Source: Escherichia coli
GTDB lineage: Bacteria > Pseudomonadota > Gammaproteobacteria > Enterobacterales > Enterobacteriaceae
Direction: 5' to 3' (one strand)
DNA length: 64,000 nucleotides
Assembly (NCBI RefSeq): GCF_003991155.1
Contig: NZ_CP031293.1
Made by a program: the position numbers and the translations under genes. Positions 3,543-12,671 of this stretch are shown here, piece by piece. Numbering within the stretch: position 1 is the stretch's first letter; the number at the start of each line of letters is the position of its first letter. Under the pieces are notes generated by a model that did no database searches, was not told where the DNA came from, and worked only from the letters and a program-made list of their open reading frames with translations.

Positions 3543-4631
3543 TCAACCACCGGCTTTCATTACCCATTCAGAGATAAATTTATTACCCGGTACTGGCGGA
3601 GAGTACAAATAGCCCTGCAAAAAGTGAACGCCTTTGCCGATCATTAAATCCGCCTGCTCCTGGGTTTCTACCCCTTCCGCCACGATACTCAGACCAGGCT
3701 TACGCGCCAGTTCGACAATATTGTCCACAATATGACCGGATATTTCGTCCACGCTCGCCATTTGCACAAATGACTTATCGATCTTAATAAAATCGACCGG
3801 GAACGCCTGCAAGTAACGATAGGTTGCATAACCCGTACCAAAGTCATCCAGCGCAAAGGTAATGTTGTGCTGATGAAGGCTGTCAAATATCGCTCTGGCT
3901 TCTGGCGTTACCGGAATAGGGTTACGTTCCGTTAACTCGAGAACCAGTTTGATTTTATCGTTACCTAATTTCTTAACCAGGTTCAGACACTCTTTTTCAA
4001 ATCCTGCGGCCAAAAAACATCCTGCCGAGACGTTGATGCCAATATGGAAATTATCCGGCAGCAAATGTTTTACTGGCATCAGAATATCCGCAGTCTGTTT
4101 CATCAGCTGGCGAGTCATTATGACGATAAGACCAGATGACTCCGCCAGAGGAATAAACTGATCCGGTGGGATAATTCCCGTTTGCGGATGTTCCCAGCGA
4201 ACAAGCACCTCACAGCCCGTCAGTACCCCAGTCTGCGCGCAGAAAACCGGTTGGATCCACGGTTTAAATTCATGGTTTTCCAACGCCAGACTGATGGCTT
4301 CAGGCGTGACGATATGGTGATAGTGATTATCATTAATATATTTGTGACTATTATTACCCGTGGCGGATATGATCTCCGGATTGTACTGAAAGAAAATATC
4401 CCGCCAGAAAGTAATATCGCTCTGAATCCCCAGTTTCTCAAAGAGCTGTTTCTTTTGATGTGAAATGGTCTTTGCACTGCGATTTCTGTACTGTGATATT
4501 TCTGTTACAGACATTCCCTGCATCAGCAGCTTGAGTAGCAGTCGTTCTTTCTCGGATACGCTACCAGGCAATGACAAATGAACCGTTGTACCGAACTCTT
4601 GCAGAAAAACACGAAAATCACATGAATTCAT
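3543..4631 (-). CDS. pdeL: c-di-GMP phosphodiesterase PdeL (LuxR-type HTH + EAL domain)
   Basis: ORF 3543-4637; N-terminal LuxR-type HTH, C-terminal EAL-domain motifs (ELTE, DDFGTGY, KIDKSF); start placed at MNSCDF to give 362 aa. Confidence 0.85.
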   Translation of the reverse strand: MNSCDFRVFLQEFGTTVHLSLPGSVSEKERLLLKLLMQGMSVTEISQYRNRSAKTISHQKKQLFEKLGIQSDITFWRDIFFQYNPEIISATGNNSHKYINDNHYHHIVTPEAISLALENHEFKPWIQPVFCAQTGVLTGCEVLVRWEHPQTGIIPPDQFIPLAESSGLIVIMTRQLMKQTADILMPVKHLLPDNFHIGINVSAGCFLAAGFEKECLNLVKKLGNDKIKLVLELTERNPIPVTPEARAIFDSLHQHNITFALDDFGTGYATYRYLQAFPVDFIKIDKSFVQMASVDEISGHIVDNIVELARKPGLSIVAEGVETQEQADLMIGKGVHFLQGYLYSPPVPGNKFISEWVMKAGG

Positions 4632-9755: not shown

Positions 9756-11444
9756 TTGCAATTTGACTACATCATTATTGGTGCCGGCTCAGCCGGCAAC
9801 GTTCTCGCTACCCGTCTGACTGAAGATCCGAACACAACCGTGCTGCTGCTTGAAGCAGGCGGCCCGGACTATCGCTTTGACTTCCGCACCCAGATGCCCG
9901 CTGCGCTGGCATTCCCGCTACAGGGTAAACGCTACAACTGGGCCTATGAAACGGAACCGGAACCGTTTATGAACAACCGTCGCATGGAGTGCGGACGCGG
10001 TAAGGGGCTTGGCGGGTCATCACTGATCAACGGCATGTGTTACATCCGTGGTAACGCGCTGGATCTCGATAACTGGGCGCAAGAACCCGGTCTGGAGAAC
10101 TGGAGCTACCTCGACTGTCTGCCCTACTATCGCAAGGCCGAGACTCGCGATGTGGGCGAGAACGATTACCACGGTGGCGATGGCCCGGTGAGCGTCACCA
10201 CCTCCAAACCCGGCGTCAATCCGCTGTTTGAAGCGATGATTGAAGCGGGCGTGCAGGCGGGCTACCCACGCACGGACGATCTCAACGGCTATCAGCAGGA
10301 AGGTTTTGGCCCGATGGATCGCACCGTCACGCCGCATGGCCGTCGCGCCAGCACCGCGCGTGGCTATCTCGCTCAGGCCAAATCGCGCCCTAACCTGACT
10401 ATTCGTACTCACGCCATGACCGATCACATCATTTTTGACAGCAAACGCGCGGTGGGCGTCGAGTGGCTGGAAGGCGACAGCACCATTCCGACCCGCGCGG
10501 CGGCGAATAAAGAAGTGCTGTTATGTGCAGGCGCGATTGCTTCACCGCAGATCCTGCAACGCTCCGGCGTCGGCAACGCTGAACTGCTGGCGGAGTTTGA
10601 TATTCCGCTGGTGCATGAATTACCTGGCGTCGGCGAAAATCTTCAGGATCACCTGGAGATGTATCTGCAATATGAGTGCAAAGAACCGGTTTCCCTCTAC
10701 CCTGCCCTGCAGTGGTGGAATCAGCCGAAAATCGGTGCGGAGTGGCTGTTTGGCGGCACCGGCGTTGGTGCCAGCAACCACTTTGAAGCAGGCGGATTTA
10801 TTCGCAGCCGTGAGGAATTTGCGTGGCCGAATATTCAGTACCATTTCCTGCCAGTGGCGATTAACTATAACGGCTCGAACGCAGTGAAAGAGCACGGCTT
10901 CCAGTGCCACGTCGGATCGATGCGCTCGCCAAGCCGTGGGCATGTGCGGATTAAATCCCGCGACCCGCACCAGCATCCAGCGATTCTGTTTAACTACATG
11001 TCGCACGAGCAGGACTGGCAGGAGTTCCGCGACGCAATTCGCATCACCCGGGAGATCATGCATCAACCGGCGCTGGATCAGTATCGTGGCCGCGAAATCA
11101 GCCCCGGTGTCGAATGCCAGACGGATGAGCAGCTCGATGAGTTTGTGCGTAATCACGCCGAAACCGCCTTCCACCCATGCGGTACGTGCAAAATGGGGTA
11201 CGACGAGATGTCCGTTGTGGATGGCGAAGGCCGCGTGCACGGGCTGGAAGGATTACGCGTAGTCGATGCGTCAATTATGCCGCAGATTATCACCGGCAAT
11301 CTGAACGCCACGACGATTATGATTGGCGAGAAAATGGCGGATATGATTCGCGGGAAGGATGCGTTGCCGAGGAGCACGGCGGGATATTATGTGGCAAATG
11401 GGATGCCGGTGAGAGCGAAAAAAATGAGTCGTGATGTGAACTGA
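9756..11444 (+). CDS. betA: choline dehydrogenase BetA (GMC oxidoreductase), apparent TTG start
   Basis: Product begins at [20 protein letters not shown] (FAD-binding GxGxxG); the codon at that position is TTG preceded by GGAGG; ORF track extends upstream to 9711. Confidence 0.9.
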
Positions 11445-11975
11445 CTCAGGAACCTATCAGATTGAGAGTTACCGTTCTACTATGAGGACCGAATCCTTAT
11501 ATAAAACACTGAGGTAACTCTCATGCTTCATATCCAGTATTCATGATGCTGGCTTTTTGCTGATATTTAACCCGAACATTCCTGATACAGACTATTAATT
11601 CATTTATCTGCGGCAGATTTTATTTTCTGGATATATTATGAGTGAACAAATCAAACAGGATATCGATCTGATTGAGATTTTATTTTATCTGAAGAAAAAG
11701 GTAGATGAATACCAACAAAACTCTGGGCAGTAATAAACAGCATTCTGATAGAGAGTGCCTGTATAAAGCTGAAGTGACAATGACCGGGAAGGGAACCCGT
11801 TTTCAGGAATGGATGCCTGTCTTTTTCAATTTAAATATCCTGGCATTAGTAATGCCAGGATATTTACAGAAGAGCAGCATAACCATGACGGAACGGGGTT
11901 AAGTCAGGTTGTCCTAAACGCTATTTTCAACCTCGTATGCCTTCTTCAGGTTTATGTCCAGACTTCATATCTCTC

Positions 11976-12671
11976 TCAACAATCCTCAATAATCAGATAC
12001 ACCGCTTTCACCGGGCCATGAACTCCGACGACTTTGATAAGCTCAATATCCGCCGTTGAACTGGGGCCGCTAATGATGTTAATGCAGGAAGGCATTCGTT
12101 CACCGGCCTGCGCTTTCTGATGCAATTTTTCTGCGAGTTGCGCTACACGCGGCAGGATAGTGCTTTTACGCAGGATAAAAAGAGAAGATTCCGGGAGCAG
12201 GCTCAATGAACGCCCGCGCCCGGCGGCGGAAAAAAGAACCACGCCTCCCGATTCGGTTAAACCATATTCAGCATACACTACGCCAACTTTAGCCTGCTCT
12301 GCTTGTGATATGTTCTCAATACCTTTCGCCGGATCCCAAACAACGGCATTGCATTCCTGCTGCAAACGTTCGCTAATCCCCAATTCCTCCAGCCTCGTGT
12401 CACCGCTAATCACGATCGACTGATCTCCCAGCTCTTTACACAGACGTATTGCAGCTTCTGCCGCCTTCGCCTCGCTGGTCAGTTCACAGCGCGTCAACAT
12501 AACATCGCTGGCAAACTGGATAAACGCGTCACAGCGCTGCTGTTGGGTAAGTTGGGTAAGCCGCTCGTTAGCATAGTTGTTTAGCGGCGCATCTTCTGCT
12601 TGCGGTTCAAGTCGCAGCGGGCGACCCAGTGCCTGAGCAACGTTATTCAAAAATTCGCTCCGATTATCCAT
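11976..12671 (-). CDS. ykgG: LutC-like protein YkgG
   Basis: ORF 11976-12824; start placed at MDNRSEFLNN to give 231 aa; 8-bp overlap with ykgF stop. Confidence 0.85.
   Translation of the reverse strand: MDNRSEFLNNVAQALGRPLRLEPQAEDAPLNNYANERLTQLTQQQRCDAFIQFASDVMLTRCELTSEAKAAEAAIRLCKELGDQSIVISGDTRLEELGISERLQQECNAVVWDPAKGIENISQAEQAKVGVVYAEYGLTESGGVVLFSAAGRGRSLSLLPESSLFILRKSTILPRVAQLAEKLHQKAQAGERMPSCINIISGPSSTADIELIKVVGVHGPVKAVYLIIEDC

Follow-up and report, generated by a model that had tools for sequence, protein, structure and literature searches.

What became of ykgH in the DNA examined here? The window, a stretch of 64,000 nucleotides from Escherichia coli, carries betB, betA, ykgG, ykgF, and ykgE in that order, with a gap between betA and ykgG. 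A first-pass annotation noted that in K-12 a gene of about 222 codons, ykgH, lies between ykgG and betA. It found no gene of that size in the gap and pointed to a palindrome and a long stem in the gap, which was suggested to be a deletion scar or a regulatory or structured element. The genes bordering the gap are placed as follows.

9756 to 11444, plus strand: betA (choline dehydrogenase), the left flank; an open reading frame whose coordinates are also those to which the RefSeq betA of SMS-3-5 (locus stretch 596–2284) maps.
11976 to 12671, minus strand: ykgG (LutC/YkgG family), the right flank, convergent with ykgH; its stop codon starts at 11976.

The stop codon of betA is TGA at 11442–11444, and the interval from 11445 to 11975 is therefore 531 bp long. 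The positions of the two stop codons and the list of open reading frames confirm a gap of this size with no reading frame above 70 amino acids. The longest frames that touch it encode 70 amino acids (11809 to 12021, extending into ykgG) and 65 amino acids (11705 to 11902). The placement of ykgH in K-12 is also correct: a 669-bp gene (222 amino acids) is present there. This is ykgH (b0310), which encodes a predicted inner-membrane protein and whose locus and neighbors are the same as those in the window.

When the interval is aligned with K-12, 573 bp corresponding to ykgH codons 22–212 of 222 are found to be lost in frame, as seen in three-way and six-way alignments. The 531-bp interval matches 5,212 of the 5,426 complete E. 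coli genomes, nearly all of them as two pieces spanning 1,104 bp, and in K-12-type genomes this span is 573 bp longer than its counterpart in the window. A ykgH-sized gene is indeed missing, as the first-pass annotation had it, but the gene is not entirely gone, since an in-frame remnant of 31 codons survives. A tblastn search with YkgH matches this remnant with 90.9% identity over residues 1–22. The parts of the gene that can be recognized are listed below.

11638 to 11733, plus strand: ykgH remnant, a 31-codon in-frame open reading frame made of YkgH residues 1–21 and 213–222 plus the stop codon.
11700/11701, unstranded: deletion junction, GAAGAAAAAG joined to GTAGATG, at which 573 bp are missing; the position is ambiguous by one G.
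11734 to 11826, plus strand: ykgH 3′ UTR, intact, ending at the position that matches the K-12 Term-seq 3′ end.
11804 to 11826, plus strand: ykgH terminator, a hairpin CAGG-N8-CCTG followed by UCUUUUU, with the 3′ end mapped in K-12.

Compared with K-12 YkgH, 20 of the first 22 residues and all of the last 10 are identical. A working YkgH cannot be made from this allele, because 191 of the 222 codons are missing, among them both predicted membrane segments and the region between them. The remnant peptide, MSEQIKQDIDLIEILFYLKKKVDEYQQNSGQ, contains neither the N-terminal Wzz-like nor the C-terminal GNVR-like membrane segment and has no Pfam match. In SMS-3-5 and e1-39, PGAP annotates the first 66 nucleotides of the remnant as an incomplete pseudogene.

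The closest undeleted relative that we found, NMBU-W10C18, shares the MSEQ start and the upstream sequence of the window and carries the full 222-amino-acid ykgH. In this strain the left edge reads GAAGAAAAAG followed by TTTCGT, and the right edge reads TCAAAAAAATG followed by GTAGATG. Both breakpoints lie within these short imperfect A-rich repeats, GAAGAAAAAG and TCAAAAAAATG, from which we infer that replication slippage or illegitimate recombination at A-rich microhomology would have removed the 573 bp. The ykgH upstream region, the 31-codon reading frame, the whole 3′ UTR, and the terminator are kept around the deletion. Both ends of the gene are present, they are collinear with undeleted relatives, and there is a single junction; nothing was found that contradicts a deletion.

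These results indicate that the interval is very probably a deletion allele of ykgH, and that the palindrome and the stem near betA are older structures unrelated to the deletion. Because close relatives that lack the deletion exist, the 573-bp loss is specific to a lineage. Other lineage-specific pseudogenes and in-frame microhomology deletions of E. coli likewise have short imperfect repeats at their breakpoints, a clade-sized minority of carriers, and independent lesions. The ykgH allele is not unusual among them; the one point of note is that the flanking regulatory and 3′ UTR sequences are untouched.

One could suppose instead that the short interval is the ancestral state and that K-12-type strains gained ykgH, given that neither E. 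whittamii nor two other Escherichia lineages were found to have the gene beside ykgG. This view has to contend with a remnant in which ykgH codons 1–21 and the final 10 codons are still in frame, and with the retained upstream region and 3′ UTR of the gene. Since these in-frame ends are shared, a late insertion of ykgH exactly between codons 21 and 213 appears implausible. Moreover, what E. whittamii lacks extends beyond the gene body to the whole module. An assembly artifact is the other way to explain the gap away, and it must be set against an identical junction in 173 independently assembled complete genomes. We consider it almost certain that neither an ancestral short interval nor an artifact explains the locus.

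The count of carriers rests on an 80-nucleotide probe centered on the junction, which had to be covered over at least 80% of its length in one place. By this measure the same junction occurs in 173 of the 5,426 complete E. coli genomes, SMS-3-5 included, and the short interval is thus not the state of K-12 and most strains. Among the 40 matches listed, the probe is found in every case as a single piece with 100% identity, and in about 4,980 other genomes its two halves match separately. Several genomes, 2016C-3878, MRY15-117, and AR Bank #0349 among them, match the window with 100% identity over 15 kb around the locus. SMS-3-5, a strain of phylogroup F, differs from the window at 58 of 5,080 positions. 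Divergence between the two reaches 3% inside betA, whereas it is zero in the 1.2 kb around the deletion. Since none of the differences lies between 11087 and 12275, the 1.2-kb haplotype that carries the deletion may be shared or may have been moved by recombination.

Other lesions of ykgH were also observed. Strain ampC_0069 has a 168-bp in-frame deletion that leaves a 166-amino-acid product, and the O157:H7 strain F8092B has an internal stop codon. In strain e1-39, which has the 573-bp deletion as well, an IS1 element is inserted in the ykgH 3′ UTR and has duplicated 8 bp, CGTTTTCA. Neither in-frame deletion (573 bp or 168 bp) touches the upstream region, the start and stop codons, or any of the 3′ UTR. 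Because the gene has been lost in a minority lineage and disabled independently in others, ykgH appears to be dispensable and decaying.

Full-length YkgH itself matches Pfam families only below threshold (Wzz N-terminal domain, E = 0.0025; GNVR C-terminal domain, E = 0.56), and searches for an NCBIfam model or a relative of solved structure in the PDB gave no match. Homologs with about 29% identity are encoded on small mobilizable plasmids of several enterobacterial genera; an example is a 5.2-kb mobilizable plasmid of Enterobacter cloacae, with the homolog at positions 1407–2081 of the plasmid sequence. The Wzz and GNVR matches of the plasmid homologs fall just under the Pfam thresholds, hinting that these proteins could be a miniature form related to polysaccharide co-polymerases. 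An anti-phage role for YkgH was considered and set aside, as PADLOC gave no match.

If the interval is a deletion allele, do its hairpins have anything to do with the loss? The first of them lies next to betA.

11463 to 11523, plus strand: stem-loop just after betA, with perfect 11-nucleotide arms TGAGAGTTACC and GGTAACTCTCA and a 39-nucleotide interior that has a small hairpin of its own.

The long stem placed at 11464–11521 by the first-pass annotation is thus real, with slightly different limits (arms at 11463–11473 and 11513–11523). Folding of the region 11445–11562 gives a z-score of −4.3. The arm sequences do not change across eight E. coli lineages and E. whittamii, the latter with 75% identity overall, whereas the interior varies. 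This stem is single-copy, is present in 4,085 of the 5,426 genomes, and has no Rfam match. It looks like a constrained, unannotated structure or inverted-repeat site at the 3′ end of betA. Because it is present in strains with an intact ykgH, the stem can be taken to predate the deletion and to have no connection with it.

The second structure is the palindrome, which was reported as spanning 11833–11865. It exists, and it is longer than reported by one base on each side.

11832 to 11866, unstranded: perfect 17+1+17 palindrome, TAAATATCCTGGCATTA-G-TAATGCCAGGATATTTA, what remains of a 20+1+20 form.

The arms (11832–11848 and 11850–11866) are 17 nucleotides each, 100% complementary, and separated by one nucleotide; no other perfect tight inverted repeat in the 64-kb window is as long. 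A simple calculation puts the probability of a perfect 17-nucleotide arm pair with fixed spacing in 64 kb at about 4 × 10−6. Most E. coli carry a 41-bp (20+1+20) palindrome, CTGTAAATATCCTGGCATTA-N-TAATGCCAGGATATTTACAG, which would span 11829–11869, and in K-12 and B2 strains the stem is 3 bp longer at its base. Two derived substitutions in the lineage of the window, C to A at 11829 and G to T at 11831, have removed the three outer pairs. As with the stem near betA, its presence in strains with an intact ykgH makes the palindrome older than the deletion, unrelated to it, and not a deletion scar. The suggestion of a scar therefore holds for the interval, which aligns as two blocks 573 bp apart, and fails for both hairpins.

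The spacer between ykgH and ykgG was found in 5,144 E. coli genomes, always at one locus, and a search for the palindrome elsewhere in the genome likewise returned this locus only. An apparent second copy, suggested by two BLAST placements, proved to be a self-match of the palindrome to its reverse strand. Aligned across 15 lineages, the arms hardly vary, and the center base is G, C, or T. One arm change is seen in B2-type sequences, where a G-U pair is retained on the plus strand; K-12 has two changes. The palindrome is not more conserved than its flanks in this alignment, with 4 of 35 columns variable inside it versus 35 of 207 outside (p = 0.62). Covariation in the arms was not seen among the 15 sequences, where the only arm changes are one G-U pair and one mismatch. 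The loss of three outer base pairs in the lineage of the window also argues for weak constraint.

As RNA, the palindrome is predicted to form a 16-bp stem with a free energy of −21.6 kcal/mol on the plus strand and −22.5 kcal/mol on the minus strand, and with z-scores near −7. No family of Rfam 15 accounts for it (the best match, at 20 bits, is to a miRNA model with a threshold of 100). No copies were found in the phage collection searched, and the plasmid matches are only same-locus records (F-prime-type plasmids and chromosome-sized records). Like REP/BIME, ERIC/IRU, and MITE elements, the palindrome is intergenic and lies in a transcribed spacer. Unlike them, it is single-copy in each genome examined, is AT-rich, and has no match to Rfam or repeat families.

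Several other candidates at this site were rejected. A pseudogene ykgQ beneath the palindrome is not tenable, as the literature places ykgQ beside ykgA. Folding of 11734–11975 (z = −5.2) proposes an extended hairpin of about 100 nucleotides at 11796–11897; it shows no covariation, B2-type substitutions break two of its pairs in 6 of 15 sequences, and it is cut by the 3′ end placed at 11826 from the K-12 tables. The 65-amino-acid frame at 11705–11902 has no Pfam match, and the 3′ end of the K-12 transcript falls inside it. In SMS-3-5, PGAP annotates this frame, which spans the palindrome, as a “hypothetical protein” (WP_012311773.1); it is probably spurious and appears once ykgH is gone. Finally, a relative of the palindrome on plasmids turned out to be only an ordinary terminator downstream from the plasmid-borne YkgH homolog.

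Transcript ends mapped in K-12 help to place the palindrome relative to the two convergent transcripts. Supplementary file 1 of Adams et al. (2021; PMC7815308) includes, for the ykgH strand, a strong Term-seq 3′ end at MG1655 324603(−). Its context is CAGGAATGGATGCCTGTCTTTTT before the end and CACTGTAAAT after it, and it is present in at least two places of the multi-condition table (PMC7815308). Placed by sequence, this listed K-12 end corresponds to window position 11826, the last U of the U-run. The segment 11804–11826 thus has a hairpin, a U-tract, and, from these same entries, a mapped K-12 3′ end, as is expected for an intrinsic terminator; its hairpin is weak and was not called by a terminator scan. 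The palindrome starts 6 nucleotides (five intervening bases) after this 3′-end position and about 110 nucleotides past the stop codon of ykgG. On the ykgG strand, the K-12 Term-seq tables consulted (PMC7815308) list no 3′ end within MG1655 324400–324999, the interval that contains the palindrome, which may reflect poor expression of ykgEFG in the media used.

Supplementary file 2 (PMC7815308) gives Rho termination regions for both strands, at 324578 (ykgH strand) and 324913 (ykgG strand); these coordinates stem from 800-nucleotide windows and are hence coarse. At that precision, the listed coordinate 324578 falls inside the palindrome. The listed coordinate 324913 is antisense within ykgH and maps inside the segment that is deleted in the window.

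The ykgH 3′ UTR has also been scored by RIL-seq as an Hfq-associated sRNA candidate, “ykgH.EST3UTR” (Bar et al. 2021; PMC8175672). The evidence consists of RIL-seq chimeras and read accumulation, northern blots were negative, and a U-tract length of 5 is listed (PMC8175672). The probes of that study map to 11778–11816 of the window, and both this probed sequence and the terminator are fully kept in the deletion allele. The palindrome, in contrast, lies outside the candidate sRNA (PMC8175672), past the mapped 3′ end. It is conceivable, although improbable, that the 573-bp allele turns the mRNA into a transcript of about 190 nucleotides that would still deliver the Hfq-associated ykgH 3′ UTR, and perhaps a 31-residue peptide. 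If true, this would be a natural stand-alone sRNA gene born from the loss of its parent coding sequence. Separately, and just as improbably, loss of the apparent K-12 Rho-stop stretch for ykgEFG read-through could send antisense RNA into betA.

What, then, might the palindrome do? Stem-loops described by Dar and Sorek in 2018 reportedly mark or protect the 3′ ends of Rho-terminated mRNAs. The palindrome resembles them in being a stable hairpin without a U-tract downstream from ykgEFG, with a K-12 Rho-dependent signal further downstream among the listed regions; it differs in that the Term-seq entries consulted for K-12 list no ykgG-strand 3′ end at the palindrome. Because the hairpin is stable on either strand, and because ykgEFG has no obvious intrinsic terminator and its Rho signal lies further downstream, we tentatively propose that the palindrome serves as an RNA hairpin in ykgEFG and ykgH read-through transcripts, where it would act as a 3′-exonuclease barrier or roadblock and not as a classical intrinsic terminator. 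In this proposal, ykgEFG transcripts, whose Rho termination appears to lie further on, would contain a hairpin of about −22 kcal/mol, as would ykgH transcripts that read through.

The position between convergent genes, and a symmetry by which the two strands share stem and A/U-rich tail, would also suit a bidirectional intrinsic terminator for ykgH and ykgEFG, with CCUGGCAUU/AAUGCCAGG as the core stem followed by AUAUUUA on either strand. The Rho or read-through transition listed for the ykgH strand at 324578 also falls inside the palindrome. A stable stem-loop is present, as such a terminator needs. However, the sequence 3′ of the full stem (CAGAAGAG on the plus strand and AAUUGAAAAAG on the minus strand) is not a U-tract, T makes up just 4 of 8 bases in the tail, and no terminator was called there by the scan on either strand. 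The K-12 Term-seq entries consulted list only 324603(−), which is upstream of the palindrome, so that the ykgH transcript has its end at the U-run, five bases short of the palindrome; for the ykgG strand, the same entries give no 3′ end, and the best Rho coordinate among the listed regions is about 330 nucleotides further on. We therefore regard a bidirectional terminator as unlikely.

Perfect dyad symmetry with a free center base could instead mark a DNA site for a dimeric regulator. By eye, CTGGCAT-N5-ATGCC also resembles the σ54-like −24/−12 element TGGCAC-N5-TTGCA on both strands, with GG-N10-GC spacing. Either kind of site would sit at the 3′ ends of both genes, away from promoters. K-12 carries a mutated version of the σ54-like site, and the supplementary tables of a σ54 ChIP-seq study, to the extent that they were accessible, have no entry for ykgH or ykgG. 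Sites similar to the palindrome number 6 in the window versus 3.1 expected, no excess over chance, and none is a close copy. A regulator or σ54 site is accordingly very improbable.

A further possibility concerns the history of the junction between betA and ykgG, for which the following features are needed.

11526 to 11534, unstranded: left 9-bp direct repeat, CTTCATATC, which brackets the ykgH module and is the insertion point of the hyx island in ST131.
11534 to 11559, plus strand: terminator-like hairpin, CCAGTATTCATGATGCTGG followed by CTTTTTG, seen in the fold and called by the scan (8 pairs, loop of 3, T-run).
11963 to 11971, unstranded: right 9-bp direct repeat, CTTCATATC, just before the ykgG stop codon.

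E. whittamii has ykgG right up against the betA-side stem, and a single copy of the 9-bp repeat, a diverged one, is present (locus stretch 3680–3700). Two histories would fit this pattern: an insertion that duplicated a 9-bp target, or a loss from E. whittamii through the repeats. In ST131, an island of roughly 6 kb (about 5.99 kb) with ipbA(fimX), hyxR, hyxA, and hyxB is inserted inside the left 9-mer, at 11530/11531, such that CATGCTTCAT precedes the island and ATATCCAGTA follows it. Homology also ends at this point in the island-bearing loci of B2, O157, and other strains. An end of the hyx island bears another perfect palindrome, CCTGCAGGCAGCAGTATGCTGCCTGCAGG, and in island-bearing strains the terminator-like hairpin, at 11534–11552 without its T-run, follows hyxB. 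The ipbA-hyxR-hyxA-hyxB island has been described as the UpaB cluster between betA and ykgH (PMC4844996). Since E. whittamii lacks the module and the ST131 island sits inside the left repeat, the betA-ykgG junction is a recurrent site of gain and loss.

The palindrome might then be a functionless relic of the arrival of the ykgH module in this junction, for example a former terminator or a structure from the end of a mobile element. The module is AT-rich (32–42% GC versus 50–60% in the flanks) and is bracketed by the 9-bp repeat. E. whittamii lacks it between the betA-side stem and ykgG, and in two other Escherichia lineages and Citrobacter it was not found beside ykgG. The finding that the palindrome is no better conserved than the adjoining spacer, and that its base is eroding in the lineage of the window, would also be expected of a relic. 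Nevertheless, the 41-bp palindrome is nearly perfect across all sampled phylogroups, and as a single-copy sequence with no relatives in the phage and plasmid collections it can be assigned to no nameable family of mobile elements. A relic seems rather doubtful.

Sequences found at the equivalent position elsewhere were also noted. In other Escherichia lineages and in Citrobacter, ykgG is followed by unrelated sequence, each opening with a hairpin whose arms contain CTGG...CCAG; the one in Citrobacter is ACCGCTCTGGC-N7-GCCAGAGCGGT. These hairpins may be a coincidence or a faint echo of a common ykgG-distal hairpin.

Nothing in this locus points to a new type of element: the case is one of ordinary strain-to-strain loss of a dispensable gene beside pre-existing hairpins. 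The comparison has a use for annotation, in that PGAP, in genomes with the deletion, calls a spurious 65-amino-acid reading frame that spans the palindrome. Well studied as this genome is, it contains two conserved structures that lack annotation, the palindrome and the betA-proximal stem, to which the 3′-end data already available for K-12 can be applied. For E. coli itself, the allele documents that a natural lineage can do without ykgH and that the gene has repeatedly been lost or damaged, a record that should be mildly useful to studies of it.
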